The notes beneath the pieces were generated by a model. The model ran no database searches, was not told where the DNA came from, and saw only the letters and a list, made by a program, of their open reading frames with translations. Positions 3,326 through 36,977 of a stretch of 42,243 nucleotides of DNA are shown here, one piece after another. The translations under genes and the position numbers were made by a program. Numbering within the stretch: position 1 is the first letter of the stretch; each line of letters starts with the position of its first letter. Source of the stretch: a virus. Taxonomy: Duplodnaviria; Heunggongvirae; Uroviricota; Caudoviricetes. The stretch lies in the IMG/VR virus record IMGVR_UViG_3300029976_000110, one strand, 5' to 3'.

Positions 3326-6319
3326 ATGTCATTAGTAAGGAAATTAGCAGAAGGAGGAAATACTCCAACAACATATAAAATGTATGGTAAAACATACAAT
3401 TTTGATGATTTTCAACGATCTTCGGATGAAGGATTAGATGAATATCTATCTAATTTAAAGAGAGGAGAAAAGGATCGTGATTAGTTTATCGAAGCATATA
3501 ATAATATGATGTCTGGTATTAAAGACGGAACTATTACTTTTGAAAATGGGTATTATCATGATTCAAAAGGTCGATATTCTAATTCTAAAAAGAAAAATAG
3601 AGATTATTATGGGCTAATAGCCAACTATTTATATAGTAAACAAGGAAAACAAGGGGAAGTAGAATCTAATTGGAATGGAAGTGAAAGTATAGGTAAAGAT
3701 TTAATTAAAGAAATTTTTAATTCTAATACTGGAAATTTACAAGATTTTATTGATTTAGATCCTCTTGATGAAAAAACTAATAAACGAGGAATAGATAGAA
3801 GAGCTAGTTATTTAGCTGATAAACTTCAAGAAATCTATAATACTTTTGATACCAGATATTCTGGATATACTACTCAAGAAAAAGCTGATGCTTTAAGTAA
3901 TATACAAGCTGCTATTAATGCTTTAAGTAATAAAACTATCGATGCTGGAGATTATCTAGCTTTAAGTAGAGCAGCAAGTGGTTTGGATTATCGTACAATG
4001 TTTGGAGATGTTTCTAATACTCCTTCTATTATTCAAGATAGTGAAACTCCAACTATTAATGAACGAGTTACCCCTAATCAAAGAAATGGTCAAGGAAATA
4101 ATCACTCATCTGAACAACTATCAGAAGATTAGTTTAACACTTGGATCGATTCACAATATAAACCTGTTACAAAATATGCCACAGGAACTTTAACATTTAG
4201 CAAAACTGGTAAATGGACTTAGGATCAATTTAATAAAATATTGGGTTCTTTGTCACAAGCCCAAGTATATGGTATGATCAATAAATTATTTAATGATCCT
4301 ACTTATAAGTTTAACAAAGATTCTGAGGTTACGAAACGCTTTGGACAAGGGTATACATTCCAAGTTGCTAATAACACAGCATTATTTGGATTACTTCATT
4401 GGGCATAGCAAAAAGGATGGCTTGAAGATATAGGTAATGGTTCTTATTATATACCATATAGTCATAAAAACGGAAGAACTGGGTGGGCTGTTAACCTAGA
4501 CACTAATCAATTACAAGAAATTGATAGAACTAAAGTTCCTTCTGTTCGCAAACAACTATCAAAAAGTTTTCAATAGTATTTTACTCAATCACATAAAAAC
4601 GGAGGTATTTTAAAAGCTCAAAACGGTACTTTTTTTAATAACATCTGGGCTGGTGATAACTCTGACACTGGTTATAGTACTTATTTAAATAGAATATTTA
4701 ATAATACTAATGTATTAGATTGGATGAAAGGTAATTATAATGGAGATACCGCCACATCCGACTATTCTAATTACGTTAAACGTAATGTTGATCAAAGACA
4801 TTAGTATAAAATAAATGATTACAATAATAGTTCTAAATACACAGCTAATGAAGGTGTTAGAACGTTTAATACTGGATATTAGAATAATGGTAATACATTG
4901 AATTATACTCTATTCGGAAATACTTCTGAAGACTATAATAATAAAACAGGTGGAGCTGCTTATAGTTTGATTAATTTCTCACGTCCTAATAAAGCGTTGA
5001 ACACAGGGGATAGTTATAATTCTGATAAATCTAAAGCCTACATTGACAATGCATTAGGACTTCAAACGTACTCTAGAGTTGCATCACTTACTGATCCTAA
5101 TATTAAGACTGGAGGATTCGGTGATTGGGGCTCTTATTGGAAAGGATTAGGTAATACTGGTGCTTATTATTATGTTGCTGAGGGAGATACTTCTGGAAAA
5201 GGACAATGGATTCCTACTTCAGATACTTCTTTAAATAATTATCAAGCATTTGATAAACCTGCAGATTCTCAACCTGCAGTTGAAACTCCTACTGAACCAA
5301 CTAATGAAGGTCCGAGTTCAAATATTTATAGAACTCCAAATTCAAAAAATCAAGGTTCTCCTATTGGAAGTGCCATAGGAAATGCATTAGGTACAGTAGC
5401 TTCTAATGGAGATTTAGTTGGAGCAGGAAGATTATTATATTCATTGAGAACTAATAATCGTGTTGCTAAAGTATTACGTGATGCCTTACATCCACTATTA
5501 ATAGATACTTATGAATTATATTCTCCTGTTACAGGAGCATTTAGTGAAATGTAGTTTAGAAATAGGCAAGCTGCTAATACACGTCGACTTGGAAATAAAA
5601 TCGCAGCTAGTAATTCTGATGCATCTCTTGGAGCTGCTGCTATGTTAGATGCTAATAGGCAGGCTACTGATCTAGAGTATCAAGGATTCTTAGCGGATGA
5701 TAAGGAAATTAAAAGAACACAGGCAGAAGCTCTTAAAAGACAAGAGGCTAATGCTTATCTTAGAACAGACGTTGCTAATAAGAATAGAGAATCTATTCAT
5801 AATACTAATGTATGGCGGTCTCAATTAGAAGCAACTAGACTAAAATAGAACTGGCAATCTACTGATAATTTCTTATCAGGAATTGAACAACGACAAAGAG
5901 CTAAATATGCCGAGGATAAAGCACGTAAACAACAATTTGATTATCAAGTTACTGAAGATTAGCTTAATTCAGAAGTTAATAGCTATTTAACTCCAGAAAT
6001 GTCCAAAGTTGAAGCAGCAAAACAAAAACTTGCAACTGTTAATCCATTTAATACTGCTGCTTATAATCAAGCATATAATGAATATGTAACAGCAGCACAA
6101 GCTTATTCTAAAAAGAAAAGTCAATTATCTAATTGGATTCAAGCAAGACAAAGAGCTAATTATGCAAATATATATGGATATAAATATACTAATCCATATT
6201 TAAATTAGACTGCTGAACAATATTGGAATAAAAACTATGCTAGTTTACGTAATGGTGGTACTTTAAGTTTAAAAGCTAGAAATACTATAAATAAAATAAT
6301 TCATGAAAATCATTCCTAA
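3326..6319 (+). CDS. large putative virion cargo protein, 997 aa (TAG=Gln)
   Basis: ATG 3326 (MSLVRKLAEGG); track ORFs 3506, 4898, 5642 and 5999 are all in this frame and end at TAG; the gaps translate without TAA/TGA; stop TAA at 6317-6319. Confidence 0.85.
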
Positions 6320-8174
6320 ATTTTAGAATGGGGGATTTGCTAGTTATTTTACGACATATCAACCAGTATAGGTGCCAAAAATTGATGCTGGAACTACTAC
6401 AAAAAGTAGTTCTAGTTCATCAACTAAGTCTAGTAAGGAAACTGATGATACTAAAGGCAAGTTAACAGAAAAGGATTTCTTTAATATGATTAAAGATATT
6501 GATGGACTTCCTAATGAAATGACTGAAATAGTATAGAATCTTACTAGAACATTTTAGATTTAGAATATAATGGGAATAGATACTTAGGATCTATCTACAA
6601 CATATCTTAAAAATTTATTATAGATTAAAATTGCTTCCTAGAATAAAGCAAAATATGATGAAGCTTGGAAAAATGCTTCTGAAAACGGTTCTATGGCTGA
6701 ACCTGCTATTGCTCTTAATGGCGATATAATGGTACAAACTAAAGATGGATAGTTAACTAATGTTAATCTTTAGACTTATTATGCTAATAAGGATTAGTTA
6801 ACACCATTATCTGTATCTTAGTTACTAAATCTACGCGCTCATTCTTCTGCTTCTAATTGGGATTAGAAAATATTCAATATTGTCAATAATAGTATGGGAT
6901 ATGAGAGTTTTTAGGCTTTACTTGATAAGGCTAAAACAACTTTAGGATCTACAGAATACTCTGAAAAAGGCATACGCAGCAAGGATGCATTATTAGGATT
7001 ACAAACAGTTTAGGCTTTATCTCCTCAAGATAGAGAAAAATATATATAGTGGGCAATGGATGGAGTATATAATTATGATACTGCTTCATCTAACAATATT
7101 GAATAGATTAATGCTCTGTTTAATTATATGATGTCTGTTTTACCACAACGAGCAAAGACTTGGGCTTCTATTAAAACTGGAATTGCTAATAGTGAAATTG
7201 CTGCTAGAGAATTAATTGGAGAATACTTAAAAACAGGAGCTATTTCTAATAGTCATTATAATGTTTCTTATGAAGGCTCAAGAGATAGTATATCTAAGGG
7301 TTCTTCCAAGTCTGGTAGTAAATCTGGAGGAATAGATAATACTGATGCAGGTTTCTGGACTCAATTACAAGCAGGTCAAGGAGGAGACGAAGCTCCTTAT
7401 ACTATATTAAATGGAAAGGGAATGCAATCAATTACTGGTAAATATTATGGAGTAACTCCTGGGTTAGATAATAACAAATCATTAGGAGATTATATTTCTG
7501 ATTCCAAGGTTGGATATTTGATTAAAAATACACATAATATTACTTTTGGAGATATTCCTATTTCAACAGATAGTTTTAATGATGTTATGATTAATGCAGC
7601 TTCTGGAGTCATGGCTGTTACCCTACCTAAAAAATTGGATGGAACTGTTGATTTATCTATTGCAAAAACTTATGATGAAATAATTACACGATTACGGGGT
7701 GAAGGTTTATAGATAGGCACAGATTAGTATAAGAAGCGTATGGGCCAATTACTAAAGGATGCAAAATTAGATACGCTGTTAACTTCAGATGGGACACCAA
7801 ACCCAGATAGATTTGGATTTTTCTTAGTTCTTACTGGTCTAACTAGCAAAAAAGCGCAAGGAGTTGTAAATAAAACTAATAAATCTTTTGATGACATACA
7901 AAGTGATTGGATAATTAATGCAGGAGATGATAATGGTTTATATGATACACTAAAGTAGGGTTTAACCAATAAAGATAGAGGTGAATATGATGTAGATGCT
8001 GCAGGATATGGATTTATCTATAATGATGATCTGTATAAAGGTAACATCTATATACCTCTTAATATTAATCCAATTAATGCTAAAAATGCAGATGATAGTA
8101 CTATTTCTGATGCTGAAGCTAGGATCTATGAGAAGTTAACACAATAGAAATCAAATGAATCTACACAATTATGA
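6303..8174 (+). CDS. putative virion cargo protein, 623 aa (TAG=Gln)
   Basis: MKIIPKF[Q]NGGFASYF...; track ORFs 7128 and 7740 are in frame; ends at TGA 8172-8174 overlapping the next ATG. Confidence 0.85.
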
Positions 8175-11100
8175 AATAGAATGATTGGATAGTAGCAAAG
8201 TTAAATAATCCAGACTACGATGTCTATGATTTTAAATATATTTCAGGTTTAACACTAGATAATACACAATTACTTCCTAAAAGTGCTTATATTAATAGTC
8301 CTCTGATTACATCCAATTAGTAGTTTTAGAATGATAAAGGAGAATTTAAAGAATCAATGTTTGATACCTTTTATTCTAAATCAGCTTCGGATTTTTCTGA
8401 TTTCTCAGCAGAAGATGAGATGGATAATTATCAATATAGTATGTGGGATGTTAGGAAACCTAAAGACGGAAAAGTAAAAAATCCTAATTTCTCATTAAAT
8501 ATATAGAATAATCCAGACCATGTAAAAATAGGAGCTTATGATTTTAATCAAATAACTCCCTCTGATAAATCAAGAAGAGAATTAGCATAGGAAAGTAAAA
8601 TATACGATCCTGCTACTAATACTTGGTCTGAGAATACTCTTAATGATATTTCTTTATTTAAAAATCCTATAAAATATATTGAATCTTTATTTGATGATCC
8701 ATTAGTATATGCTACTTATGATGAAGACACTTATGAAGTTGATCCTAATACAGGAAAATAGGTTCTTCATTAGAAAGGAGAATGGAAAATTAATGAAGAT
8801 GGAGAATATTATACTGAAAAACTAAATGGAAGATCTTTAGTTGGAAAATCAGTAGTTTCATCTACTGATTATTTAACTAGTGAAGATTCTTCTGTAAATA
8901 AATATGATTTCTTTGATTCGGATGGTTTAGATAAATCTGTAACAGGAACGATAGTTAAAAATTTAGCAGCTTATGCCCCTGTTTTAATTCCAGGTGTAGG
9001 TACAGTTTATGCTGGATTAATGGTAGGCAGAGAAATAACTAAATCTTTACCTATGCTTTATGGTATGGTAACAGGTTTATCTGGTTCAGATAATACTGAT
9101 TCTTAGTTATTAAATACTATTGCTGCTTATGGGCAGAAATTTACAGGAAGTACATCTGACTATTCTCAAAATAACACTTTTACTTTTGAGAATATTGGAT
9201 CTATGATTTCTGATGTTGCTCTTCAATGGGGACAATAGAGATTTATAGCTGATACTTTTTCTAAACTAACCACAGGTGGTGATCGTGCTATTAAAACTGC
9301 TTACGTAAAAGCACAAGCTGACTATGCGAATAGAGTAGGGAAGGTGTTTGAAGATGCTTCAAAAGGTAAATTATCACTAGATCAATTAAGTAATTATATC
9401 GGGACAACTAATCTCAATAATATCAAATCTGATTTAATTGATTCTGGAAAATGGGTAGATTCTGTATTAGGAAAAGCAGCTATAGCTAAATACGTTACTC
9501 CTGCACAAACTATTCTTAATAATAGAATAAAAACTGGTTAGGATTTATCTTTAGCTTATATGGCTGTTATATCTAATACAGACGTATATGATTCAGTACT
9601 TCAACACGGTGGAACTCCTTTTGAAGCGGCAGCTATTGCTTTAGGTAGCACTATAGGAATGTTTTCAGTTGATAAGTATCTTCACTTGGGAGAGGCTTTC
9701 TTTAATGAAGATTCTGCAAGAAAAGCCATCAGAACATCTGCGGTTAATAGTGTTAACGAACTTAGAAATACACTCGGATGGCAACAAGCTGTCGATACTA
9801 CTACAAAGAAAGGTATTGTTGGATTAATTCAAAAAGGTATTAATTCGGGTAAAAAAGCTGTTCAAAATTATGAAAATGCTTTAAAAGAACATACTCTTGG
9901 ATTTGCAGGAAAAGCTCTTGGAGAAGGTGTTGAGGAAGTTAGTGAAGAAATTGTAACTGACTTAACCAAAACCTTAGGAGAATTAGCAGGACAACTTGGA
10001 TATTTTTCTCAAACAGATTATGGTGCTTGGGATAATGTCATGGAGAGATATGGAATGTCTCTTTTAGGAGGTGCTGCTGGTGGTGGATTATTCTATACTA
10101 AATATGCTATTGATAATAGAGGAAGAGCTAATCAAGAATTTCAAAATGATCTTGTTTATCTAATTAGAAATGGTAAGAAAGATGAAGTTCTTGCAGAATT
10201 AGCTAAAATGAAAGATAATAATCAACTTGGTGATAAAAATCTATCTGTTGATACTACAACAGATGATAAAGGGAATAGAACCTACTTAACAGCAGATTCT
10301 GAACACCAATCTCAAGCTGATTATATATATAATACTCTTGTATCTAATATAAATCAATTAGACACAATACTTAATGGAAGTGGTTTAAGATTAAATGAAG
10401 ATGAACTGTTTGATAAAATGGTTCAAGGTGAATATACTGCAGGAGCATTAAAAAAGTTTTTAGCGGATAATAAACAAATATCTTATATCACTAATTATTA
10501 GCAAGATTTCCAAAATTTAGCTAATTAGATAATTAATAAACAAAAAGAAATTTAGGAGCATATTAATAATACTCCAGATCCTTCTAAAAGAGGAACTGAA
10601 TTTCAAGAGAAGCTATCCAAATTAAAACAAGAAGAATAGGAATTGATTAATCAGAGAGATTATTTATTTGGCGAAGGTTCTCTTGGATATGTTGAAAAAA
10701 TGCTTTTTGCTATAGATTTAGGGGTTAGTGGTCCATTAGTCTCTTTGTCTAAAGAACAATATGCTAAAAATAATTTCGGAAAAGATATTTCTGAATTATC
10801 TGCTTCTGAAAAACAAACTCTTGATAAGTAGTTTGAAGATTATGAAAAAAATTCTAAGAAAACAAGCTTAGATACTGCATTTAAACTATTTAAGTCAATG
10901 CAGAAGAAAATTAACCCTTCTGTACAAGAGTTAAATTCATTAGATTTATCTGAAAGTATTGCACAATTTAAATAGCTAATCGAAGAAGATCCATATTCTA
11001 AATAGAAAGGTATTTATGATTTATTAGACGGAGAAACTGAAGAGGATTTAAAGGCATTACAACAACAAGAAGGAGAATCTGATGAAGATTATCAAAAACG

Positions 11101-14100
11101 ATTAAAAGAACGTGAAACTAAAGTTAAGGAATATAATCAAGCTCATATTAACGAATGGATTGATAAATTTACTAATTTAAATTTAGATAGACATCATTTA
11201 AGACTCTTACATAGTAAAATGGGAGTATTAAAAAATGAAATAATTAAATCTATTGCTTCTAAGTTTATAATTCCTAATGAAACAGCTTTATCTAATTCTA
11301 TTCGCGATGCTATAACTTCTGGAGCATCAGATGATGTTATTAGAAGTATTATCCAACAAAGTAAAGAGGATAAATATAAAAATTTATATGGTGAAATGCC
11401 TTTTATCGATCCTATTCTATTCAATCGATTATATAGAAAATTAGGAGAAGATAGAGGTAATGAAACTGATTATTTAACTTAGGGCGATATATATACTCTT
11501 TTTAATCAATGGTTAACTGAAAATCCAGATAATCAAGAATTATTAAGTGATTCTGATAATTTAGGAACAAATTACGGAACTGTTTATAATAATTTTCTAA
11601 ATTACTTATACAGTTTAATGCAGTATAATCCTACTCAAGCAGAAAATAATGGGATTACACCATAGTTATCTGGAGAAACTGAAGAACATGATTTATCTAG
11701 AGGTTTTCTTGATTATTACTCTCAAGTTTTAGATCCTAAAGAAGGCGTTTCTTTGTAGGATAAGTTTCTAAAAAATGCAGTAGCATACGCTATAAATAGA
11801 CACGTTTCTGAAATAAATGGTACAGAAATTAATGGAGAAGAATCTGCTCCTGTTAATACTCCAGGATTTTTAATTGATAATTTAGTTAACTCTGAAACAG
11901 ATTCAACATTTGGAAATATTATTGATACTATAAATGAAATTAGAGAAGAAATCAATAATAACTCTGATATTAAGACTTTTAATAAATTAGAATCTGTTAA
12001 ATATGTCAAAAACCCAGCATTGTCTGTTGTAAATCAAATTAATGATTCTGAAAATTTCTTAGAATCTATTTATGAACTATTTCAACAAGGATCAGATCAA
12101 TTTACATTATCTGAAGAATAGATGGAATAGTTGAAACAGATAATGCAAGATATGAATATTGCTAAAGCGTTCATAAAAGCAGCATCTGTTGAAGGAAGTT
12201 TATCTGAACCAATTGGACATAATAAATTCTTAAATGATTATGTTAAAAGACACAGTGATATATTTAAGAACTTTGAAGAACTTCCAGAATTAGATTCTGA
12301 TACAGCATATTTATTAATTAATGAATTAGATAGTTATCAACAAGAAATACAAAGTTGGATAGCTTTATCTAATAGAAATAAAGGAAATCAATTAAAATCT
12401 TTCATAGAAGCTAAATAGGCTTTATAGACTGCTAATATTGATTTGTATAGAAAAAATAGAGAATCATTTAAAATAACTCCAGAAGTTGACTTACTTGAAG
12501 GTTTTGAAGATCTTGAATTAGATAATTCTCTGCAATCACTTATTTTAGTTGAGAGCTTATTACATAATAACTATTTAAAAGCTATAAGTAAAGGATTAAC
12601 AGTTGAACAAATTCTTGATAAACTAATTCCAGATTTATGTAATATTAGTCGCTTAAACTATTAGGAACATACTAATTTGGATGAAAGTCTAAAGTATGAA
12701 ACATATTCTGATTATGATAAATTAATGCAGATAATAGCCAATTTTGCTATTGATGATAAATCTTTTTATTCTAAATTACTAAATATTATTAATAATAATG
12801 AAGGATTTGTACCGATTGCTATTCAAGAACAAGTACTCAAATTAGTATAGGCACAAGGTTCTAATTTAGATCTTATTAATAGGGCTTTACGTTATATTAA
12901 TTCTAAGTTAGAAATAAAACTTCCTATATTACCAAATACAACTATAGTTACTGGTGTAGCAGGTGCAGGAAAATCCTATATTATATCTAATTCAGTGGAT
13001 AATGATAGTACTACTTGGATAAGTGGTCCAACTTAGAATTAGATTGATAAATTATCAGAGAATCTTTCCAAAGCTAAACAAATAACTAAGGAAGATTTAT
13101 TAAAATTAGCATTGGGTTCTGATTATGCTGCTTTTTAGGATGAAATAGCTAAAATTGGAACGTCTAAGTCTGGAAAATATTTTAAATTAGTTGATGGCCT
13201 TAAAAATTACAAGACACTTGAATTAAAAGAAGGAGTTACTTTTAATAAAATTGATAACCCTCCTAAGAAACTGGTTATAGATGAAGCTTCTCATTTTAGT
13301 ACTGGAGAAATGTTAGCTATATCTAATTGGGCTGAATAGAATGGTATTCATGTTATTGCCATAGCAGGTAGTACACAGAATGGTTATTCTAAAAATAAAA
13401 TAGAAAATATAACTTCAGAAACAGTATTAGCTTGGAGAACTCCAAACTTATTCATGTCTTTACGTACAAATAATGTTTAGAAAACTCAAAATTTAAAAAT
13501 TCTTGATACTATTATAAATGAACTTGATAAAATAGATAATGAAACATAGTCAGAACAAGCTATGTCTGCATTGGAATCTACAGGAATTACTCTACATTAT
13601 TATAATGGAGATATTTTTGCAGGAGAGCAAATAGTATCTAAATTAGGAGATGTTTCTAAATTAAAGGGAACTGTAGCTTTTATAGGATCTGAATCTTCAG
13701 AAAACTATAAAAGGTTACAAGAGGCAGGATTAAAACCAGAATTGATTGATCCTTTAAATGTACAGGGATAGGAATATGATTATGTCATTGTTGATAAGAA
13801 TTGGGACTTCGGAGATAATCATTTTAGTAAATTCAAGGGATTAATGGATTTATATACTATGGTTAGCCGTAGTAAAAAGGGAACTATTATTATTAAAAAT
13901 AATTTACCTACTTGGATTGTATCTAAAGAAGATAATTATACTTCTGAAGCAAATACAATTACTAAAGCTCTTCCTATATTTAGAAAAGCTACAATGGAGG
14001 AATTAAATTCAGTTAAATTCCCTGATGAAGTAACTGTTGAAGCTCCAAGCGCAGAAAAACCAAAAGACATACCAAAAACTACAGAAACTTTAAAAGAAGA

Positions 14101-17041
14101 AACAAAACCTTTAGAGGATAATAAAGCCTTAAATGATCCAGAAAAAACTAAAGCTACATAGTAGGAGCAAATACATGATGCAATTGCTATATCTGGAAAT
14201 AGTTTATTAGAAAAATATCCTATAAGAGTTTATGGTAATGTATCTTTTGCAGGTATTGAAATAAATGACACGGATGAAAATAGGGTTCATATTTGGACAA
14301 ACAAAAATAGTTCATATTCTGATTTAGGTATATTTATTGATGAAAATACTACAGTTATAGATCCTAAAGAGCAAGAGAATTATGTAAAATTATTATTGCA
14401 AATTAAATGCTTATTCCATTACGGAACTGATTATTATGATAAATGCGATTCAATAATTACCAGACGATTTAGTAAAGAAAATTTTGATAATGCAAAATTT
14501 TTCATTAAAATTGAAGAAGCTAACGATAGTAACTTATTAGTAGGTTTAACTGATCTTGAAAACGAAAAGAGAGCTATTGGAAATGGAAGAATCGTCAAAT
14601 TAATTGCGAGATTTAATGATAATAATGGAAATTCATTTGATGTATCTTTAGGTGCTTTTGCTAATCCAGAAACTTGGAGAAAAGGATTAAATACCATCAA
14701 AACTTCACTAAAACAACAAATTGATGAAGGGAATACTGAGTTACAAGACTATTATAATAACTTAGATTCTTTAGTTGATCAATATGAAACTTGGGTTAAT
14801 AATAATACAACTTCTGATTAGGAAATTGAAATTGACAAACCAAACTTCAGTCAACTAACTTCTTTAGTTTAGAAAGATTAGTTGTTAAGACTAGAAAAAA
14901 TTGATCCTAGCTCACACTTTAGCCCATATAAATATGCATCTCATTATTCTGTTGATTCTCCAGTATATATTATAACTGATGATGAATTGCCATTTATAGA
15001 TAAATCATTAAAAGGAAAAGCAGTTATATTTTCTTCTTCTAATATATTCTTATCTCCAACATCATTAAAAGACATCTATATATAGGAAAAATAGTCTGAA
15101 TCAACCTCTGGAAGTGTTAGAATGTTGATTTTAGATAATTTAGGTGTTTCATTCCGTTCTTTATATGAAGAAAAGTATAAAGGTATATATACTACTGCTG
15201 TAGGAAATAGTAAATCCTTTGTTCCTTTTAGAACAGAAGATACTGGAGCACGAATGTATATAGGTGCATGGAATTTCCGAGCTAATTTGAAGAATTTTAA
15301 TGCTAGAGTTAGAGCATTTAAGCAAACATCTGGATTATCTAATGACGACATACATATTATATGTTAGTTAGATAACCAATATTATAATGAAATTCGGGAA
15401 AAAGAAGGATAGGTATTAAAAAATGGTAATAAATACTTAGATGAAGCAACTTATCGGCAACGAGTAAGTTAGGTACATCCTAATGATGTTGAAGCCTTAA
15501 AGAAAATATGGGATTTCAATGATAGTTTAGCTACTCAAGTAAGAGAATTTAGATTGGGTTATAATAAGCCTAATGGAGCATATATACGCAAACTAACACA
15601 TCTTGAATCTGGAGGTTTTTACAAAGATATTAATAATACAAATGGTATGTATATTAATCCAGAAATAGCAGAATTTTATGAATAGGTATTGGATAATTTA
15701 TTTACAAACATCTATGATAAGATTATTACTATTAATAAAGAACCAAATGTATTATTAGACAAATCTAAACTTGAAAAAGGTTGGTATAAAATAGCAGAAG
15801 ATTTTAGTAAAATTACTATTCCAGTTAATGATGAAGATGATGCTTCTCTTACATTTAATGGAACAGATGCGTTAAGTGCAATAACTTTCTTAACTATAAA
15901 AATAGGGAAATATCTTAATTATGAGCGACTATTTCCTGATTTTATGTAGAAAATTGCTGAGAGAAAACCAGAATCTAAGTGGTGTCGTTTACAATATAAT
16001 GGTGAAGAATTAGATTGGATTTCAATTATTCCAGATGATTCTAATCTTCCCGAAGGTATAACTATTGAACTGGCTGATCCCTTAACTGAATGGGATGAAA
16101 GTTCTGCAGAGGTAGGTGTCAAGCCTTATTCAACTGAAAATGGAGTTAATAAAGGTTATTTTGATGCAAAAATAACCAATTTATTTAGTTTAATGTTTCA
16201 TGGATTAATTGACTTAAAAACTCCTAATGATTTTACAAAGGGAGATATTAGAGCTACTGATGCTGCCTTTAAATTTGGTTTTATGTCTGACCCTTTAATT
16301 GCAAAAATACCACAAGAAGGAAAGAGCACTTTTGCAGGAACAGTCACCTCTAATAAATTCTATGGAACAGATGCAGTATGTGGATTACCTATTATAGGTG
16401 CTTATTTAAAACCTAAATCTACTGAAAGTTCTGAAGAAACAACTGAAAGTTCTGAAGAAACTACAATAAATCCATTATAGAAAGTTGTTGAGAAATATTA
16501 GCAACTAACTGGAATTACAAGTAATATAAATCTAGATCTATTTGAAAATGAAGAAGAAGTTAAAGATTTCTATATTGAAGAAGTTAGAAATAATCTAAAA
16601 GCTGCATTTTCTAATTAGAAGATAGATCCAAATTAGATTATTTATTATAATGATGCATTTACTAAACTAAATTCTATTATTCCTAATATTTCAGATATTG
16701 AATTTGTAAATGGTAATTTTATTATTACTACATCTGATGAAAGAACTTTTAGTATGATATTAAATAATAAAAAATTAGATATTTAGGAACAAAAGAAAGA
16801 ACAAGAAGAATCAACTTTCAAAACAGATGTTAATAACTGGCTTGAACAAAATATATTTGTAGATACAGAGGAATCTGAAAAGCAAAGTATTTTAGAACTT
16901 TTAAATACATTATACGAGCAGGCAGGAAATAATATTGGAACTAAGACTTCTAATTATATTATTAATCAATTAAAAGAAAAGTTATCTGGTTTAGGATTTG
17001 ACAATTTAGATGAACTAGACAATTTTAGAATAAACTGTTAA
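8171..17041 (+). CDS. giant crAss-like virion protein A, ~2956 aa, with an SF1 helicase domain (TAG=Gln)
   Basis: Starts MK[Q]NDWIVAKLNNPDY; 13 track ORFs from 9344 to 16193 share this frame; contains GVAGAGKS (Walker A, ~12953), LVIDEASH (Walker B, ~13271), QG[Q]EYDYV and YTMVSRSK; ends FRINC-TAA. Confidence 0.85.
16421..16462 (+). repeat. 21-bp in-frame tandem duplication (TESSEET x2)
   Basis: actgaaagttctgaagaaaca followed directly by actgaaagttctgaagaaact. Confidence 0.9.
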
Positions 17042-17042
17042 T

Positions 17043-20000
17043 ATGAATAAATGTTTATTACCAAATTATAAAGAATCTGATTACTCAAAAGTAAGTTTAA
17101 AATTATAGTCAACTGATAATCTAGATTCTTTAGTAAAATAGATTTTGGACGGATTGGAGAAGCAAAAAAGCTTCTCCATAAGTCCAGAAATGTCAGTTAA
17201 TAGAGAAGAATTTAATGATAGCGTAAATCTTTTATTAGATAAGATTATACCCGATGCCGAAAAAGTTTATACCGGGTCTAATATATCTGAATTAAGAGAT
17301 ATACTCTATAATCATTTAACTGAGTTTAAGTATACTCCAGTAGATGAGGTTATTATGGCTGTAATATCTGGAACAGATTTAGTTACAGAAGGAGAACGAC
17401 AAGAAGTTAAGTTTTCATAGCTTGTAAAGGATATTCAAGGTACGTCAAATAGCTTTATTTATAATACTATGAGATAGAATTTTTCTAAAGATATGAAAAA
17501 CAGAACTATTATAAGTGATAATGGTTTAGTTACTTCCTATGAAGATATGAATGAATCTTTAGAAGCCTACTTATCTGAACAATATTTAATTTTAAAGAAA
17601 TATTTAACTTCTATTGATGAAAATAATCAGCTTTCTTCCATTATGGGAAATAGTTTATTTATTAATCATCAATTTAATCCTGCTTCTTCAGCTACCTTAC
17701 AGGCAATGTACAATCAAATAGTTAAATTAAAAAAGAATAAAACTTTTGATGATACTATTAAGCAAGATTGGGAAAATAAAATGGTGTCTAATTCTCGTGA
17801 AATATCATTTTATGATGCAGTTGATGCATATATGAAAATTGTCTATTTTGATGATTATTTATCTACAGTATTAGGTGGATATATTAAAATAGATCATAAA
17901 ATGGACACTCCTATTGAAGTTGATGAATATGGTAAAAATAAATATAAATATTCCTTTGTTTCTGGAAATATTAATGCTGTAAAAACTTGGGGAGTAGAAG
18001 AAAGAAATGCATTATCTGAAATGAGTAAATTCTCAAAAGTTTTAATTGAGAGTATTCCTCTTTATGATTTTAATTCTAAAGTACAGAGCTATGGATATAT
18101 GCAAGTAAAAGACTTTGTTAATACAATGTCTAAATTGTTTGATTTAATTCCTTAGCTTACAAGTAATTCAAATATTCTACATAATGCTTTAATAAACTTT
18201 AAAAACAGTCCTACTGCATCTATTTAGACAGTATTTGATGTAATCTTCCGTAATCAAGATATGCTTTCAACTCTAATATCAAAAGGATTTGATGAAAATT
18301 ACTTAAATTATTTATATTCAATATATAAAACAGTATTTAGTGGCAATAATTCCTGGTTAACTATTGAAAATAAATATAAATTAAAGCATGGAATCCCTAA
18401 TACATATTCTATAGTTGATACTATATTAGGAGAAATGAACGCAAATGTTTCAGCCAACTATGTAGAAACAGTGTATGAAAAGGGAGATACTATAACTAGA
18501 ATTAGGACAAAATATAATATTAACAGAACTATTTATCAAGTTATAGATAATGCTAATGAAATAATCAATCTTTCTACTTCCTTAAAATAGGACTTATTAG
18601 ACAAATATCAAATTTCTGGAGATTCTGATTATTATATTACGGTAGGATCTAATACCATTTTAATTAGTCCTAAAGGTTCTAATAATATATTAACTAAACC
18701 CTCTCAATCTTCAAATTCTATTGATATTTCTATTAATGGTTTAAATGATATTGCTAATTTTATCCCAGATATAAGCAAGGCCACAATAAGACAAAGAATA
18801 TTTAAAGGGTAGGCATCAGACGATGAAGTAAAATTACTTTCGGTACTTAAATTCATAGATGATATGTTAGGAACTAATTTTTCCAAAGATGAGCAAGGAT
18901 TATATTCTTTTTATTTATTGCAAAAATTCAATAAGAACAATCTAAGGGAAATGATTGCATCTGCATCAAGAGGTTTATTAGTTACAAAAATATATCATGG
19001 ATTTGAAACTACACTATAGGATGGAAAGAAATACTATAGAAATGAGTTAATTAAATTTTTACAAGAACATCAAACTGAATATATTAATAATAATTTAGCT
19101 AATTTACAGAATCGCAGAAATTATTTCAGAGATATAGAAAATGAAGGAAAGCATTTAATTGTAATTTCTGGAAATGAGAATTGGTTAACTGATTACTCTA
19201 AAGTACAAGCTATTTTACGAAATGAAACTTCACAATCTACAATTAATAGTTTAACAGGTAAAAAGTTTCCTAATTATACTCCTTCATTTTTAGGTTCTTC
19301 CTTATGGTATCAAATATAGCAAGCAGCTTTAACACATTCTTGTACCGAAAATCTATTATTTACTAAAAACATTGATAAAATCAAAACTGTTGGAATTAAT
19401 TCTGAAGTTAGAACACAATTTGGAGTTAGAAAGCAAATAAAGGATTTAAATAATGGAGAATTATTATATGACTCTATTGTTAATAAATTTATAATTCCAT
19501 CTTTAGAGGGTAAATATTATTCTCAACCTACGACATACTCTGATAAAACTAAATTTATTATATATGAGATAGCTTTAAGAGAGTTACTTGAGAATAAAGA
19601 TATTTATGATTAGAATATAGAAGAGTATGTTGAACAAAAAATAATGTCAACAATAGGACAGTTCTACAAGCAATCTTGGAATGAGATGTTATAGGATTAT
19701 ATTAAATTAATATCCTATTTAAATAACTCTGGCATTGAAACAGGTATAGGAATTACTCAGAGTGTAGTAAATTATGAAACTGTTACATCTATTAATACTC
19801 AACAACTTAATAATTGGTTAAAAACTCTTTCTGAAGAAAAATTGTTAAATTATGCAGAACAATATAATAAAAATAATCCTTCAGATCATTTAACATTATA
19901 TTCTGAAACTCACTACAGAGTTGGAAAAAATGGATTAACCTTAAATGAACTTACTAATTATTATGCTAATGTTCTATATGCACATCAGAATGTGTTACAT

Positions 20001-23000
20001 TAGAGATTATATCAAGAGAAAATAAATTTAGCTAATAATTTACTTAAATATAGAGTAAAATTTAAATATAATTCAAATCCAGATAGTACTGATGCAATTA
20101 CTCTTACTGCTAAAAGAGTATTAGGAACAGAAGTAAAAGATTGGTTATCTGGCAGCTATCTTGCTGTAGGTAGAATTACTAATATAGCCACGGGTGAATC
20201 AAGATTGATTTCATACGGATAGGTTTAGTTAGAAGAAAATGAAGTATTTGAATTAAATCCTATACTTAATTCATATTTTATGATTGATAATTTAGTAGGA
20301 AACAATTTAAGATATACTCTTACTGGTTCTGAACTTAATCATAAAATTAAATCTCTAAAGAAACTTAATTTAAATAAGGAATTTAAAAATTATATTCCAA
20401 GAATTAGAGAATTAATTGGAGATACTTCTAATTTAACATTTTATGACATACAAACTGCTATTTCTAATATGCAGGAAATAACTCCAGAAGATTCTGAGAT
20501 TATATCTTTATTTAATAAATTAATTTATAATTAGGAAAATTTAGGATAGAACGCTCAATTTAAGCGTAATGTTATAATTCCAGGTACAATTCGACCCTAC
20601 ACACCTAAATGTATTAATGGAATGTCTTCAAAAATGAATATTGCTGTGGTAAAGGATGTTGCAGCAAATATTTTTAATTTTGATGGAATTGCTACTACAG
20701 AGGATGCACACGATGGCTCTGCTTGGATTAATCCTATTGCTTCTTTATTAGAAAACTGGTCTCTACAAAGTTCAGAAGTTGGAACAGTAAAAAAACCTAT
20801 ACACCATTGGATGAATAATAAATATGGAACAGCAACTTTGTTAAAATATGCTGTTGATACTATGACTAATCAATGGATGAGATAGGCAGAAGGCAACAAA
20901 AATGGTATAGTAATTAGAAATCTAATAAAGAAAATGCTCGGAGTTAGGTGGAATGGCACTATTGATTTAATAAATAGTTGTCAATTTAGAGTAAAATCTA
21001 ATATAGACTTTAAAACTGACATTCTTGCAGGTAAATCTTTATATTATAAGGATGGCTTAAAACATTATCAAATATAGGATTTTGGTTTTGAAAATGGTGC
21101 TTATTATACAGTAGAAGCAGAAGTTAATATGGTTGGAGAAGTTCAATCTGAGCCTATAAAAGTATTCCATTATTTTGATGATGAGGGAAATCACTATACT
21201 GAATTTTCTGAAGGATTACATACTATAGATTCACTTTATGAATTACATACTGCTTTAGGAGGTTTGTTCTCAGAAAGTGAAGCTGATGGAACTTTACAAT
21301 ATTCCGAAGCATCAAATGAAGCTGTTGCTAGATTTTGTAATTATGTTGCTCTTAAAAAAGAGAGTACAAATATTAAAACTGATCCTATAGATCAAGATCA
21401 TTATTATTAGCCTTTAAAGGATAAAATGATACACATGGTTGCCAATAATAGTGCAGTCAAGAACGGGGCAGGAAATATTAATCAATCTAGACGTTTATAT
21501 AACAATGAAGAATTGTCTTATATGACAATTGGAACTGAATATTATGGAGTTCAATTAGATGCAGACCATACTGCGGATGAAGCAATGTTGACTGAGTTTT
21601 CACAGGTTATATCTTCTCTTGATTCTGGAGGACAATTACATGAGTATGTAAATGAAATTTATAAAGTTCTTGGATAGACAGCTTTATCTCTTTCACAAGT
21701 AGAACTAGATGCAGTTGCTGCATTTGAAGATAGTGGAAATAAAACTCATTTATATGAAGTAATAGGACGAACTATCGTTGACAACGTATTATCAAAAAAT
21801 TCTAATTCTGCAAGTCTAACTGAAAGTATATTGAACAATATTAAGAAAGAATTTGATTTACAAGCAGACCATATATTTGATAAAGCTAAAATACCTTTCT
21901 CTGATCCAAATATATATTCTTAGATTCTTCCTACTTTTGTTTCTATTATTAATAAAAAGTCTATTAAAAGACAATTCCCTGGATCTGGAACAGTTATGGT
22001 TCCAGGATATGATTTATCAATGATATATGAAATCAATGGGGAAACTTATTAGTATGAAGATATTTTAAAACGAGCTTATCAATGGGCGGTTTAGAATAAT
22101 ATAACTTCTACTAGTTAGGATTTATATACTCGAAATAATGAAATTGTGACTGCTTATTTAGATAGTATATAGGCTGAACAACCAAATATTGAAATCAATG
22201 ATATTATGCCTACAGATAATGTTTATTCTATCTATATAGATAGGGATGGAACTTAGATTAAAAAGCATAAATCATTAAATGAAATATTTGATTATTATAA
22301 TTATACTAATCCTACTTTTAATTTATTTGGAGTAGATGAAAATAATGTTGAATTTGAAGTATCTGATAATATATTAAATCTATATATTAAAGGGCATAAA
22401 GAATTAGGATCATTTTAGTTACTCTATAATGGAGATAATTATGTTATAGAATTTAAACATTCTTCAGATATTAGTCCAGAATAGTTACAAATTCTTTCTG
22501 ATGCATTAATTGCAGCAATTCCCTATAATGCTAAAGTATCATTATCTAATATTAGTACTTCGGATAATTTTGCTCTATGGTCTAGTATTTCAGCTGATAT
22601 GATAGACACTTCTAATTCTGAAAATATTTTATTAGATGAAACTGAAGTATCTATTCCAGTAAAATAGAAAACTTGGGGAAAAACAATTTTATCTAAAGAT
22701 GTAACTGTTCCAAGAAATCTTGCTCCAGCTAAAATATCTTATATTGTTAATGGAAAAAGAATGAGCATTTATCAACATTGGAGATTAAAGGGTCTATTCT
22801 TATCTTTACAACAATTACAAAATTCTGATATTCAAAATAAGGAAGAAGAAGAAAAGCGAATAAGAGAATATTATAATCCTCAAAAGGCTTTTGAAGAAAT
22901 TGCCAATAATCAATATATCTCAGAGGAAGAAACTAGAGCTGCCATAGCTGAACAAAGAGAACCAAATGCTATATAGGTAACTGATATATAGAATATACCT

Positions 23001-26000
23001 GCTGAAATGATTGTTTCAAATCTATTTGCTTCTAAATTTGGATTAAAACCAAATACTAGTATGGCAGATATAACCGAAAAATCTTTTATTAAAAGCAATA
23101 ATATAAGATCTTCCTCTAATTTTGATATAGTGTTTACTGGAGATACTGATTCTTATATTTCCTTTAAACCTTTATTTAATAATAGTTAGTGTAAAAAAAC
23201 TAGTTGGAGAAAAAATATAAGACCCTTTACAGAATATCCATCTGATGTAACCGATAAAAATATAGTTAATACAATTTATGCTGTTTCTGATAGTAATGTT
23301 AGATTGTTTGAAATAGGTAGAGAAATTAAAGCAACTAATGTTAAAATGGAGCGCGATGGAGATGGAAAAGCTTAGTTCTATGAAACAAATGAATCTGGAG
23401 AAATTATTTCTGAAAATGGAGCAAAGAAAAAAGCTAAAGGAACTTATAAACTCGCTAATGATGGTTCTATTATTCAAGTAATAGAATTTGTTACAAAATA
23501 TAGAGTTAAAGAGAAAGGTAAACGTTCAGTAGCATACGAAATTAATAAGGATGCTATCAAACGAGTATTTTTAAAGAGAAAATATTCTGAAGAGGAATTA
23601 TTATTAAGGAATCCAGACGGTTCTATACAAGTAGATGATCAAGGATTTCCCAAAAAGCTAACTGAAGAGTAGAAGTTTAACACCGAAGTAAATAATTTTA
23701 TTGGTAATTTATTAGGTAAAATTTATTCTAGTTCTAATCATGACGGAGTATAGTTAAATAATCAAATGAGTATGATTTCTGGAAATATTCTTAGTTCTTC
23801 TGCTTGGAATAGCTTTACTAGTTAGTTGTAGTATAATTCTAACTTATATAATTATCTTTAGAATTTAAAACCTCTTTTAACTGCTGGCAAAGAAAATTAC
23901 ACTGTTAATAAAAGACGAATGTCTCAAGCATTAACTAAATATAATGAAGATACAGCTAAAGAAAGATTTGTTTCTTTTTTGAAATCAAAATACTTTACTG
24001 TGGCTCGTATTCCGGCACAAACTTTACAATCTTTCATGTAGATGAAAGCTGTCGGGTTTACTCAAGTGCCAAACGCACAATGTTTTGTATCACATTGGCA
24101 GACATGGCTACAAGGGAGCGACTATAAACCTAAAAATCTTCCTTGCAGCTTAATTAAATAAAAAATCTTATTGTAGTCGTTAAACTTCGTGAATTGTCGG
24201 GAAATTCCTTAGAGCTTTTTCTACTAAACTAATTTAGTAATAAGTTAGTGGTGATAATTAACTATTATCAGTATAGTAACAAGGGAAAATATTGGATAAT
24301 CCGCAGCTAAATGTCCTAGATAAAATTTATGTCAAATAATCTGTAAGTTGACAAATTATTTATTAAATTTGTAGGATGAAAGTTCACAGACTATCCCATA
24401 AGGGAGTAGGAACTTTTATTTAATATCAAACTAAAAATATTAGATAAATGGTAAGAAGAATTTATTACTCAGCAAAAGCTGATTCCGAAGTGCGAAGCAT
24501 CTAGCAATAGATGAAGATATAGTCGGGCTTATATTGAAAGATATAAGAATAACTGGATATAGATAAGGCTTACATAATGGGTCTTAACTTTGATAACAAC
24601 GGTAAATATATTGGATGGAGTAATTTATTTGATTATTCTTCAATTGAAGCACTTTAGGCTTCAGAATATTTACCAATGCCAGAAGGAAAGCGATATAATT
24701 TTGATAAAAATGGAGTTGATATATCTACTTATGTTGATCAAATTATACAAGCTGAACAAAATAATGATAAGGTATCTCGTATAAAACTATATGTAGAACT
24801 TTTAAAGGCTATTAAAGATACTGATAAAGTTTCTTATAATGGTCAAAATAATGAAAATTTATAGCAGATATTAAAAAATATTAATCTACATCAATCAACT
24901 AAATTACCTTTATCTTTAACTGAAGGAGCTTAGAAGAATTTTATTTCTTCTCATATATAGAATACGATTCAAGATCTTCGTAATATGGTTAAGGCTTATG
25001 CTCCTATAGATATGGAGATATTTCGAGATGCTTCTTAGTTAAGTCCTAAAACTTCTGAAGCGAATCAATTAACATTATTAAATCCTGCTACCAAATTTAT
25101 AATGTAGTTTTAGAATATAACAGGTAAGAATGTAATTGGTATTGCGGCCAACGGAGAAAAAGGATCTTTTATGTGGCATTATTATCTAAATGATATGATG
25201 AAGCATCCAGAGAAGTATAATATTGAGAATGGGATGTTTGAATTTAAAACAAATAGAATATTAGGCAGGTCTTTAGGATCTCCTACTGCTCAAACTATTA
25301 CAATGTTACCAGACGTTAGGGTAGCAGCGGATTGGGCACTCAAACATCCTGATAAACCAATATATCGACTTACAGGTAATTTAGCAGTTGACTTAATGAT
25401 CAGTTAGGTGCTATCTGCGGCCACCGATTCTCGTATGCAGCAATAATTATTTTGTTATTTCAGAAATTAGTATTATATTTGTATATAAATTAAAATTATA
25501 TAGGTATGAATAAAATTTCTGAAGAAACTATTGGAAAAATTAAAGATCTTTATGATCAAGGCTTTAGCAATTAAAATGGCTAAAAGAAAAATGGAATATA
25601 GATTGTTCCAAACATAAGAACTCATCTAATTTCACTATCTATTTAAAAGAAGCCACTAGACTTACATTTGAACAATTAATTTTTCCATACATGCTGCCAT
25701 CTATGTATTATAAGCTAAAGTACATAGACACACTACAAGCATAGTCGGTGTAAAACTACGTGAACTCAGGAAAAACCCTTAGAACTTTAACTACCAAGCA
25801 TAAGTAGTAATACATTATGTGGCTTAATTAACTATTAAGGTATGGTAAAAAGATTAAAGATTGGGCAATCCTGATCCAAGCTTCCTAATGGAGGAAGAAG
25901 GAGCAACGACTATCGAAAACACATCTAAACAAGATGAAAGTGAGTAGAGTAGGGAAACTGAAGTGCGTAGACTTGTTTTTACAAGTATGATATAGTCTGA

Positions 26001-27943
26001 ACTTACATGAAAGTGTAAGATTAACACAATTGAATGCTAAAGAGCTTATTCTTGCAAAAGTAAATGCAGGAACTAAACTCGCTAAAATGTATCTATTCAT
26101 GATTACACTGGGCTTTAATATAAAAGACATTGTTTCTTTTATGACTAGCCCAATTGCAACTTTTATAGATACTATTACTGATACAAATATATTTAATAAT
26201 GAAGAAATTAGATTAGATTAGGCTTATAAATTAGCCTCTGGTGATTTTTCCTCATTAACGAACAATAATTTAATAGATATAATACAAGGAGTTTATCCAG
26301 ACATAGATGTTAATTCAATTAAACACGGAATTATTCCAGATGAAGTAGATGTGAATCAGTTTGATGAAGTAACTGCTGACTAGATTAATTTAATTCAAGA
26401 AATTAAAGCATTAATGAATTTTGATCCTAATTTATCGGAAGTAAAACAGGATATTGAAGAATTTAGGCACATTATGAATGGGGCTAATGAATTTAGTAAT
26501 TATGCTCGAGTACTAGGTATTAATTAGGGAATTAAAACATCTAAAGCAGATTTATAGCAACATATTCAAACTTTACAAAGATTAGTTACTGATGCAGCCA
26601 AAGCAAAAGGATTTAAAGAGTCTGATATTCCTAAAGAATTTAGAAGATTTGATTTAATTTCTTTTGTAAAAAATACAGAATATGAACCTGGAAAATTTTA
26701 TAAAGATGAATTAATAAAATATTATAATACAATTAAACAATGTATTAATATTTTTGATCACATTGACAAAATTGATTAGTTTAGAGCTTTATTTTAGATT
26801 GAAGCCGCAGTATTATAGTTTGATAAAAATATATCTGTTAAAACAAAAATATATGATACTATCTACAATATCTTAAAAGATAGTAAAAATGATTATATTC
26901 AAACTAATTACTTAGATAGATTAGTTAAATCTATTGACAATGATTTAATTATAGGATATTTTCAAAGTCGAAATATTCAAATTCCTGTACAATAGGGTGT
27001 TACTTTATTTAAAAGAGATGGAACACCAATTATAACTAATAGTGATGAATTATTACAATTAGATTCCATTGAATCAATTGCTTCATTCAAAAATCTAATG
27101 GATTCAGTAATTATTCCTAAATTAAAACAAGGAATATATTATAGATGGAATGAAAATTCTGTAGAAGAAGTATCTGATAATAAATTAACTTCTAATAATT
27201 TTGTACAAGGATTAATAAAAGATAGAGATGGAGATATTCCATTATATAAATGTGATTTAAATATGTTGGCAATAGAAGATTCAGCTTTTAATTAGCTAAC
27301 CTATTCTAATTATATTAGAGGTTTACAAAGCCTATAGAATATAAAAGTAACTGATAAATTATCTTTAGCTGATATGTTTATTTTATATAATTTGGTTGTT
27401 AATAAAAATCAATATGGATCTAATCGAATGACAACAATTTTAGATGGTCTTTTAAAAGAAGATAATATTTTGTCAATTATTAAAGATTATATAAATTTTG
27501 TTGGAGATTTAGATTACTTTGGAGAAGCAGCTAATGAGCCAGGATCTACTATTATAACTATTACGGCAAATATTCCTGGAGAAAACCCTGTTAATTTCTC
27601 ATTTGATTATCGAGATAATTTAATGTTTGCTGCTTCAACAGTAAATACTCTTAAAAATCAAAAAGATCCTAGTATTATTTTATTAAATCCCGATGGAAGT
27701 AAAACTTTTTATATTAAAAAAGGAGCATATACTTCATTTGATGTATATTCAAATACAGGAGACACTGAAGAACAAATAAATAAAGCTAACAATATTAAAA
27801 GACATTTTACTTTAGGTAATTATATAAAATCTAAACAAGATTCTACTCTAGAAAGTTTTAATAATTTAGATGAAAATACTCTTAAAATAATTTCACAATT
27901 AATAAAAGAGTAGATACTAAATATTTCATATCATTGTAAATAA
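17043..27943 (+). CDS. giant two-barrel (double-psi beta-barrel) virion RNA polymerase, ~3288 aa; join(17043..24125,24556..25428,26033..27943), TAG=Gln
   Basis: Splicing restores WQTWLQGSDY^DIDKAY (catalytic DxDxD, compare DFDID of the phi14:2 gp66-type RNAP) and LSAATD^NAKELILAKVN. Other conserved-looking blocks: QFKRNVIIPGT, DAHDGSAWINP, KRQFPGSGTVMVP, VARIPAQTLQSF. Exon frames agree with the track ORFs. Confidence 0.88.
24126..24555 (+). mobile_element. group I self-splicing intron 1 (430 nt, no ORF) in the RNA polymerase catalytic motif
   Basis: Exon ends in U and intron ends in G. P1 is cgactat (24119-25) with gtagtcg (24173-79), giving a U-G pair at the splice site. Core elements: P aattgtcgggaa (24192), Q aatccgcagc (24298), R gttcacagacta (24382), S aagatatagtc (24514). 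Confidence 0.92.
25451..25481 (+). promoter_or_regulatory. intron-internal Bacteroidota sigma-A-type promoter for the endonuclease ORF
   Basis: TTTG (25451-54), 19-nt spacer, TATATTTG (25474-81), 24 nt upstream of ATG 25506. Confidence 0.65.
25506..25753 (+). pseudogene. internally deleted LAGLIDADG-type homing endonuclease remnant
   Basis: N-terminal 22 codons MNKISEETIGKIKDLYDQGFSN-TAA, then in another frame QLKWLKEKWNIDCSKHKNSSNFTIYLKEATRLTFEQLIFPYMLPSMYYKLKYIDTLQA[Q]SV-TAA. LIxPYxxPSMxYKL resembles the C-terminus of LAGLIDADG_2-family enzymes. The LAGLIDADG helices themselves are missing. Confidence 0.7.
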
Positions 27944-36663: not shown

Positions 36664-36884
36664 ACTAATTGAAAATCAGAAACTTATATATTTTCAAGTA
36701 TATTGTCTTATTTGCAAAATCCTACATGAATCAGTCTATAAACTATACTTACTCAGAACTATACTTAAAAGACCATTTAAGACCTCTAACGTTCTCTACA
36801 ATCCACTAAAAAGTATCGGATGATCAACTTATTCAGAATGACTATTAAAACCGTTAGAAAGTCTTATTTTGTCTCAAAAAATAT

Positions 36885-36926
36885 AAAAAAAAAATGGGCA
36901 GAAACGTAAAAACGCTCCTGCCCATT
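36885..36926 (-). terminator. intrinsic terminator of the - strand metabolic gene operon
   Basis: Stem atgggcag / ctgcccat (with inner cgt/acg), preceded on the + strand by an A-run, ~50 nt past the stop at 36978. Confidence 0.75.
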
Positions 36927-36977
36927 AAAATATATATTAATAACTCTTATGTGTAATCACTTACTATTCTGTTATCT

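Follow-up and report, generated by a model that had tools for sequence, protein, structure and literature searches.

A probable IA-type group I intron with a decayed LAGLIDADG reading frame between catalytic aspartate codons of a giant crAss-like phage RNA polymerase gene

The classic group I introns of phages, those of T4 td, nrdB and nrdD and of the Twort and SPO1 types, belong to subgroup IA2. For crAss-like phages, Yutin et al. 2021 (PMC7886860) describe LAGLIDADG-bearing group I introns in the RNA polymerase (RNAP) gene block of the Delta and Zeta groups, and for the Zeta group, with genomes of 145-192 kb, both TAG recoding and extreme intron density. In phage PhiPA3, the gp210 intron interrupts the virion RNAP subunit gene gp211/209 beside conserved aspartate codons; its endonuclease cleaves the homologous gene of a competing phage, which lacks the intron (Birkholz et al. 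2024, PMC11620839). Here, we analyze a locus of this kind in the IMG/VR virus record IMGVR_UViG_3300029976_000110, a Caudoviricetes sequence of 42,243 nucleotides (nt) whose full length is referred to below as the window. Taking all lines of evidence together, we consider it very probable that an IA-type intron (intron 1) lies within the codons of a D-Y/D-I-D motif, that it is the remainder of a decayed LAGLIDADG element, that it is spliced from the transcript of a giant crAss-like virion RNAP gene, and that a second such intron (intron 2) interrupts the same gene.

The locus resembles the introns of Yutin et al. in host gene class, endonuclease family and TAG recoding, and contigs related to the window are 160-195 kb long, similarly to the intron-rich Zeta group (PMC7886860). 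As described there, those introns were detected through their endonuclease domains, a route by which intron 1, having no recognizable open reading frame (ORF), would be missed. PhiPA3 likewise bears a group I intron in a virion RNAP gene next to conserved aspartates; however, it combines an HNH nicking endonuclease with a multisubunit jumbo-phage RNAP, whereas the window combines a deleted LAGLIDADG ORF with a single-chain two-barrel RNAP. The classic phage IA2 introns share with intron 1 the P7.1/P7.2 core, the insertion into critical-residue codons of an essential enzyme, a peripheral loop that houses an endonuclease ORF, and the occurrence of ORF-less derivatives, whereas the lack of P2, the single P9 hairpin and, in relatives, an ORF placed in P7.2 and overlapping the 3' core set the window apart. 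Homing endonucleases tend to target codons of critical residues (PMC3984707); homing introns in catalytic codons are a known rule, and intron 1 is one more of a known, common kind of mobile element. Our own additions are its ORF-less state and the origin of that state, a corrected subgroup, the true anatomy of intron 2 and several side observations given below.

Intron 1 is an insertion of 430 nt (window 24126-24555, + strand) that separates TAT (Tyr) from GAT (Asp) in ...WLQGSDY/DIDKAY..., the flanking codons reading GGG AGC GAC TAT up to 24125 and GAT ATA GAT AAG GCT TAC from 24556. It stands in phase 0, has 28.6% GC and a length not divisible by 3, and the frame of the first exon reaches a TAA 12 codons past the junction. 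The Rfam group I model RF00028 aligned with 24122-24546 over its full length (positions 1-253; 33.6 bits; E 2e-6 in a local scan and 5e-5 window-wide). An intein was ruled out by the length, which is not a multiple of 3, and by stops in all frames. The parts of the interrupted gene are as follows.

17043-24125, + strand: RNAP exon 1, 2361 codons with 40 in-frame TAG, ending ...WLQGSDY; an ORF when TAG is read as Gln (TAG=Q), with its C-terminal part homologous to gp66 of phage phi14:2.
24126-24555, + strand: group I intron 1, 430 nt, probably of IA type, with no P2 and no intact ORF; recognized from RF00028, intron-less alleles and covariation.
24556-25428, + strand: RNAP exon 2, 291 codons with 8 TAG, from DIDKAYIMG... 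to ...LSAATD.
25429-26032, + strand: group I intron 2, 604 nt, in the DNAK motif of the trigger loop; recognized from Rfam, contiguous and occupied alleles, and guide/exon covariation.
26033-27943, + strand: RNAP exon 3, 636 codons plus stop, with 11 TAG, starting NAKELILAKVNAG.

Related alleles place the boundaries to the nucleotide. GenBank MT835492 holds an empty site, reading uninterruptedly through ...WLQGADYDIDKAYVMG..., and MT835470 carries a 1075-nt insertion at a position identical to that of intron 1. A search for related loci with a single protein found none, and an alignment-based query was required; with it, IMG/VR yielded 80 loci for which DIDKAY served as the anchor and which are non-independent and in many cases near-identical. 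Among these, G[SA]DY/D[IV]DKAY was contiguous in 52 and interrupted at the very phosphodiester bond used in the window in 26, while three were interrupted 17 nt upstream, within the Leu codon of WLQGSDY, one locus (L061) being occupied at both sites. Four pairs of intron-bearing and intron-less loci (L022/L021, L073/L071, L062/L075 and L059/L060) have 900-nt exon flanks that are 95-99.7% identical, which indicates recent gain or loss of the element; presence/absence polymorphism at one site among close relatives, a hallmark of mobile introns, is therefore found here. The preliminary description of this DNA had proposed a 430-nt group I intron between the Tyr and the second Asp of DYDID and had expected intron-less alleles to read through this site, and the RF00028 match, the empty sites and the covariation described below uphold the first point as the contiguous GSDYDIDKAY or GADYDIDKAY of the empty alleles upholds the second.

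Gene callers routinely begin a product at the Met of DIDKAYIMG, and about 50 of the best 150 cluster representatives in an exhaustive profile search were such truncated calls. This could be read as a sign that no splicing takes place and that three ORF pieces are translated apart to assemble as a split polymerase. We find this scarcely credible: the first Asp would be separated from the other two, which would lie on a different chain, 12 junk residues would follow GSDY, there would be no reason for a conserved, covarying fold with a guide that tracks the exon, and a contiguous protein is the norm in intron-less alleles. With about one third of this very large RNAP family of gut phages split at the motif (26 of the 80 loci), annotation delivers the gene in pieces that obscure its catalytic site, and introns devoid of an ORF go unnoticed in searches for endonuclease domains; the junctions, guides and structure given here permit correct gene models.

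The secondary structure of intron 1 was hand-drawn on the copy in the window and evaluated in an alignment of 18 distinct related introns from which ORFs had been removed. Its elements are listed below.

24118-24125, + strand: exon strand of P1, GCGACUAU, which pairs with the guide; covariation with synonymous exon changes.
24165-24180, + strand: internal guide, consisting of the P10 partner (conserved UAUU at 24169-24172) followed by the P1 guide GUAGUCGU (24173-24180).
24185-24383, + strand: 5' strand of P3 (24185-24191), P4, P5 with a three-way P5a/b/c extension, and P6/P6a, placed by helix coordinates and compensatory changes.
24192-24204 and 24298-24307, + strand: element P (in P4) and element Q (P4').
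24382-24393, + strand: element R, GUUCACAGACUA, containing the 5' strand of P7 (24389-24393).
24389-24393 with 24520-24524, + strand: the P7 pairing.
24394-24486, + strand: domain-7 insertion of IA type, with the P7.1 hairpin (24394-24405) and the P7.2 stem (24409-24412 with 24483-24486).
24491-24497 and 24498-24513, + strand: P3', and P8 with a GCAA loop.
24514-24524, + strand: element S, including P7'.
24528-24547 and 24555, + strand: P9 with a GAAA loop, and the terminal G.

The structure comprises 82 pairs, with standard pairs in 92.9% of the cells and changes on both sides in 33 pairs; when the partners were slid by 1-3 columns, only 5-13 double-sided pairs were obtained, and none of 500 shuffles reached the observed values. 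Compensatory changes include CG/UA in P7.1 and both GC/AU and AU/GC in P7.2. The U.G pair at the splice site (U24125 with G24173) was kept in all 15 alignable rows, and the terminal G24555 was conserved across all relatives; the U-G pair of P1, the terminal G and the P/Q/R/S elements had been named in the preliminary description, and each was located. The guide follows synonymous changes of the exon (GAC occurs with GUAGUC and GAU with GUAAUC, while AGC occurs with CG and AGU with CA), a covariation that would be difficult to account for if P1 did not form. On this evidence we rejected the Rfam placement of P1/P2 (24126-24170, and 25635-25690 in intron 2), as the guides at 24173 and 25744 covary with their exons; a trial helix P6b, unsupported in relatives, was also dropped. 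The P10 of eight base pairs proposed earlier stands in part: relatives preserve the four pairs adjoining the splice sites (UAUU 24169-24172 with GAUA 24556-24559), whereas the AUCU/AGAU extension occurs in the window alone.

From this arrangement a splicing pathway can be proposed. The guide GUAGUCGU forms P1 with the final eight bases of the exon, which places the U.G pair at the splice site. There, as is usual for group I introns, an exogenous guanosine held in P7 would presumably attack. The freed exon would then attack after the terminal G24555, aligned by the short P10, and exon ligation would restore GAC TAT GAT ATA GAT, with a predicted junction of ...GGGAGCGACTAT-GATATAGATAAG....

A sub-threshold Rfam score, the loss of the endonuclease ORF and an AT-rich extra insertion in loop L1 could be taken to mean that intron 1 is a dead relic, no longer spliced, within an RNAP pseudogene or a defective genome. 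We hold this to be very improbable. All 82 modelled pairs are standard in the copy of the window (in part by construction, the structure having been drawn on that copy), the invariant sequences of P4, P7 and J8/7 are unchanged in it, the flanking exons keep all residues invariant in the family, the frame remains open over 3288 codons with TAG=Q, and an RNAP of this type, as in gp66, starts infection in a characterized relative (bioRxiv 10.1101/2020.03.07.982082).

Group I subgroups are distinguished by their peripheral elements, and the P7.1 and P7.2 hairpins in domain 7 are named as features of IA2, which is also described with P9.0, P9.1 and P9.2 (PMC4227781). Intron 1 has the former, but its domain 9 is not extended, one P9 hairpin (24528-24547) being followed by 8 nt. 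Because an extended P9 and P2 are lacking, we classify intron 1, as judged from its sequence, as IA-type, of the classic phage kind, and not strictly IA2. The preliminary description had instead read its R and S elements as a Tetrahymena-type IC core and the intron, by extension, as an exception among the classic phage IA introns. Subgroup IC1 is said, after Michel and Westhof in 1990, to have P2/P2.1 and P9.1/P9.2 with nothing inserted between P7 and P3', whereas intron 1 shows no P2, a single P9 hairpin and a 97-nt P7.1/P7.2 insertion.

The IC assignment, with which the intron would be Tetrahymena-like and unusual for a phage, could draw on the identity of R and S with the sequences given for the Tetrahymena-type core in the preliminary description and on the three-way P5a/b/c extension, whose A-rich strand superficially recalls P5abc. 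Nevertheless, R and S are identical to the Rfam consensus of the whole group I family, P/Q/R/S being described as general group I core elements (PMC3984707), and they are hence generic; P7.1/P7.2 are present and covary, and P2.1 is absent along with P2. Furthermore, introns of Staphylococcus, Vibrio, Lak and other crAss-like phages share 72-75% identity with the core of intron 1. An IC-type intron is thus most improbable, and neither the Tetrahymena-type core nor the exceptional status of the intron could be sustained.

At the same site, relatives carry an ORF of 229-234 amino acids (aa) that is located in the P7.2 loop, extends across P3', P8 and P7' and belongs to LAGLIDADG_2 (Pfam E 1e-23 to 1e-26). 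An intact homing endonuclease is absent from intron 1, where an 18-codon remnant was found.

24448-24504, + strand: LAGLIDADG ORF remnant, in which the ATG and the next four codons are joined at AGAAGAAT (24454-24461) to the last 14 or so codons; located by alignment with ORF-bearing relatives.

The shared 8-mer AGAAGAAT stands at both ends of the intact ORF in relatives, and intron 1 is a microhomology deletion derivative of a LAGLIDADG intron, non-autonomous and no longer mobile. Its ancestor was a mobile intron whose endonuclease, encoded in the P7.2 loop, presumably targeted this conserved DNA, and loss of nearly the whole ORF between the two AGAAGAAT repeats left an immobile ribozyme. By analogy with other homing systems, the ORF-less intron, which still breaks the presumed target of the endonuclease, would protect the allele that carries it. 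Independent reduction was seen in L062, an ORF-less derivative of 359 nt, and L061 holds a version of 158 nt. A polymorphic family that occupies a single site in the gene of an essential enzyme and includes ORF-bearing, ORF-deleted and miniaturized members offers a clean test system.

With its own ORF deleted, intron 1 might be spliced with the help of a LAGLIDADG protein of another intron in the same phage, or of a host factor, a variant of the proposal above rather than its opposite. LAGLIDADG proteins double as maturases in some systems, and the ORF of the relatives spans P3', P8 and P7', tightly integrating ribozyme and protein; moreover, in Yutin et al., LAGLIDADG ORFs in crAss-like RNAP gene blocks are labelled 'endonuclease maturase' (PMC7886860). 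On the other hand, the core helices and both GNRA-type loops are all intact, and the ORF-less L062 and the miniature L061 introns suggest viability without a cis-encoded protein, which makes dependence on protein assistance rather unlikely. A further idea is that introns free of endonuclease are kept because they are useful: by interrupting the target DNA, they would shield the polymerase gene from LAGLIDADG endonucleases of co-infecting relatives, which would make the DxDxD codons a battleground. We advance this only tentatively, prompted by the two insertion sites 17 nt apart, by the double occupancy in L061 and by the experiments on PhiPA3 versus PhiKZ.

Several observations concern the mobile elements of the relatives. 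At L008 (2594-3983) and L011, a different intron of about 1.4 kb occupies the site 17 nt upstream, in the Leu codon of WLQGSDY (TGGT/TACAAGG), and this second site makes the DxDxD region a multi-site intron hot spot. At L061 (3596-4000), a mini-exon of 17 nt, tacaaggatctgactat, lies between two group I introns, one of 230 nt (Rfam 60.2 bits) and one of 158 nt (32.7 bits); the mini-exon supplies the rest of the Leu codon and the codons for Q-G-S-D-Y. The shorter intron is devoid of P2, the P5 extension, P7.1/7.2 and P9 and, if active, would rank with the smallest group I introns. The LAGLIDADG ORFs of L004, L009, L015, L033, L056, L059 and L073 (intron ORFs upstream of position 4000) are free of TAG, and the RNAP exons around them have 19-37 TAG per 850 codons. 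If TAG were as frequent in the LAGLIDADG ORFs as in the exons, each ORF should hold 5-10 of them, and the probability of none is 4e-5 to 6e-3 per lineage. By its codon content, the mobile LAGLIDADG ORF uses the standard code although the gene around it is recoded, which would fit proteins made before, or regardless of, the code switch of the phage.

The identity of the host gene was approached through gp66 of phi14:2, which holds a single DxDxD, in ...RIPNQGQSS...GSDFDIDKMYVM..., and in which Ala in place of any one of the three Asp abolishes RNA synthesis (bioRxiv 10.1101/2020.03.07.982082). The closest intron-less relative matched gp66 in BLASTP at E 2e-4 on the DxDxD block. In hhalign, a profile of 18 sequences scored 76.6% against gp66 and a profile of 75 sequences, taken from 1300 family clusters, scored 96.0% (E 4.8e-9). 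In the latter alignment, family columns 751-1144 correspond to gp66 1304-1648; GSDYDIDKAY was placed on GSDFDIDKMY, and DYDID on gp66 1361-1365. Across the 75 family sequences, D799, D801 and D803 are invariant and position 4 of the motif is Ile or Val, which is typical of crAss-like RNAPs at that position (bioRxiv 10.1101/2020.03.07.982082).

The structural comparison used an AlphaFold model of the intron-less relative L003, rather than of the spliced product of the window. With the 18-sequence alignment the motif region was unfolded and Foldseek found nothing with that model, while the 75-sequence alignment gave a predicted local distance difference test score (pLDDT) of 88.1. Searched against the whole PDB with Foldseek, the latter retrieved 6VR4, the structure of gp66, at the top (E 3.8e-6), ahead of 49 bacterial beta-prime chains, and VIA-align ranked 6VR4 (Z 16.5 over 431 residues, root-mean-square deviation 3.5) before QDE-1 (Z 8) and the largest RNAP subunits (Z 6); in this model, the order of structural kinship is the same as that reported for gp66. 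From profile and model comparison, the host gene is identified as a homologue of the phi14:2 gp66 virion RNAP, with DYDID as its predicted catalytic motif. The two proteins share RIP..Q..S ... GSD[FY]DIDK.Y.M, the GK..G..AN block and the DNAK motif of the trigger loop, whereas the protein of the window is about 1100 residues longer and the two are about 22% identical over 327 aligned columns; unlike the window gene, gp66 has neither intron nor recoding. The contig of L003 also encodes a TAG-recoded homologue of phi14:2 TerL (E 9e-13), and a single-sequence query of that contig with the phi14:2 major capsid protein gave no match.

Intron 2 starts 873 nt downstream of intron 1, with exon 2 ending ...SAATD at 25428 and exon 3 starting NAKELIL at 26033, and an Rfam group I match of 47.4 bits covers 25635-26019. 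SAATDNAKE is contiguous in 73 relatives, and an intron occupies the same bond in seven. The guide GUCGGUG (25744-25750) pairs with the exon sequence CACCGAU and, in all eight alleles, follows the third base of the exon Thr codon (ACC/GGU, ACA/UGU, ACU/AGU and ACG/CGU); the P10 partner covaries too. Between the 5' splice site and the guide lies a 315-nt L1 loop (25429-25743), which holds the remnant of an ORF for a helix-turn-helix (HTH) plus LAGLIDADG protein: the short ORF at 25506-25571, MNKISEETIGKIKDLYDQGFSN, corresponds to the N-terminal HTH of the L008 protein, where the ORF is intact (330 aa; Pfam E 8e-33). In the alignment with gp66, this insertion site falls at D1612/N1613, within the trigger loop (1598-1636). 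Introns 1 and 2 thus occupy the two most conserved catalytic elements of the RNAP, in keeping with the preference of homing endonucleases for critical codons (PMC3984707).

Under translation table 11 the + strand offers short ORFs, and a few giant genes emerge once TAG is counted as a sense codon. The spliced RNAP would be of 3288 aa with 59 in-frame TAG, its frame open throughout under TAG=Q. Relatives in the family place TAG at invariant Gln, for example in WQTWLQGSDY, and in the window two of the 15 TAGs checked fall on invariant Gln and the others in variable columns; TAG is probably translated as Gln. The preliminary description had reasoned that RNAP output needs amber suppression and two splicing events, and the second group I intron and the 59 TAG lend this support, so that two splicing events and read-through would be needed for a full-length product.

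Some results weigh against a spliced, decayed LAGLIDADG intron in a functional crAss-like virion RNAP gene. The RF00028 score of intron 1, at 33.6 bits, is below the gathering score of 50 bits, as a result of which a default Rfam scan is empty: at gathering thresholds no match was obtained in the window, and both introns surface only at an E-value threshold. The low score is an effect of the large insertions (L1, the P5abc-like extension, P6 and P7.1/7.2). P2 is missing, as just 4 nt separate the guide from P3, and the L1 loop of the window contains some 35 nt that most relatives do not have. Concerning the gene, PHROGs and Pfam gave nothing meaningful on the three exons, and phmmer and three HMMER profile searches of PDB sequences never reached RNAP; since HMMER searches alone failed, the link to RNAP comes from profile-profile and structural comparison. 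Finally, a scan of the window detected no tRNA, and hence no amber suppressor was seen there.

The wider context of the locus yielded a few additional observations. The nearest virus record (G001:C1), an 81-kb fragment sharing 20% of the 31-mers of the window, has five group I intron matches, two of them above the gathering score, that fall within about 30 kb and fit a very intron-rich lineage. Upstream of the RNAP gene, window 8171-17041 encodes a giant protein of 2956 aa with weak matches of SF1-helicase type at residues 1591-1907 (AAA_30, E 1e-5, just under the Pfam cut-off; Viral_helicase1; UvrD_C_2). At 36884-36968 (- strand), a sub-threshold Rfam match to L20_leader (33.1 versus 58.7 bits) corresponds essentially to a GC-rich hairpin followed by a T run, which most likely represents an intrinsic terminator rather than a leader.

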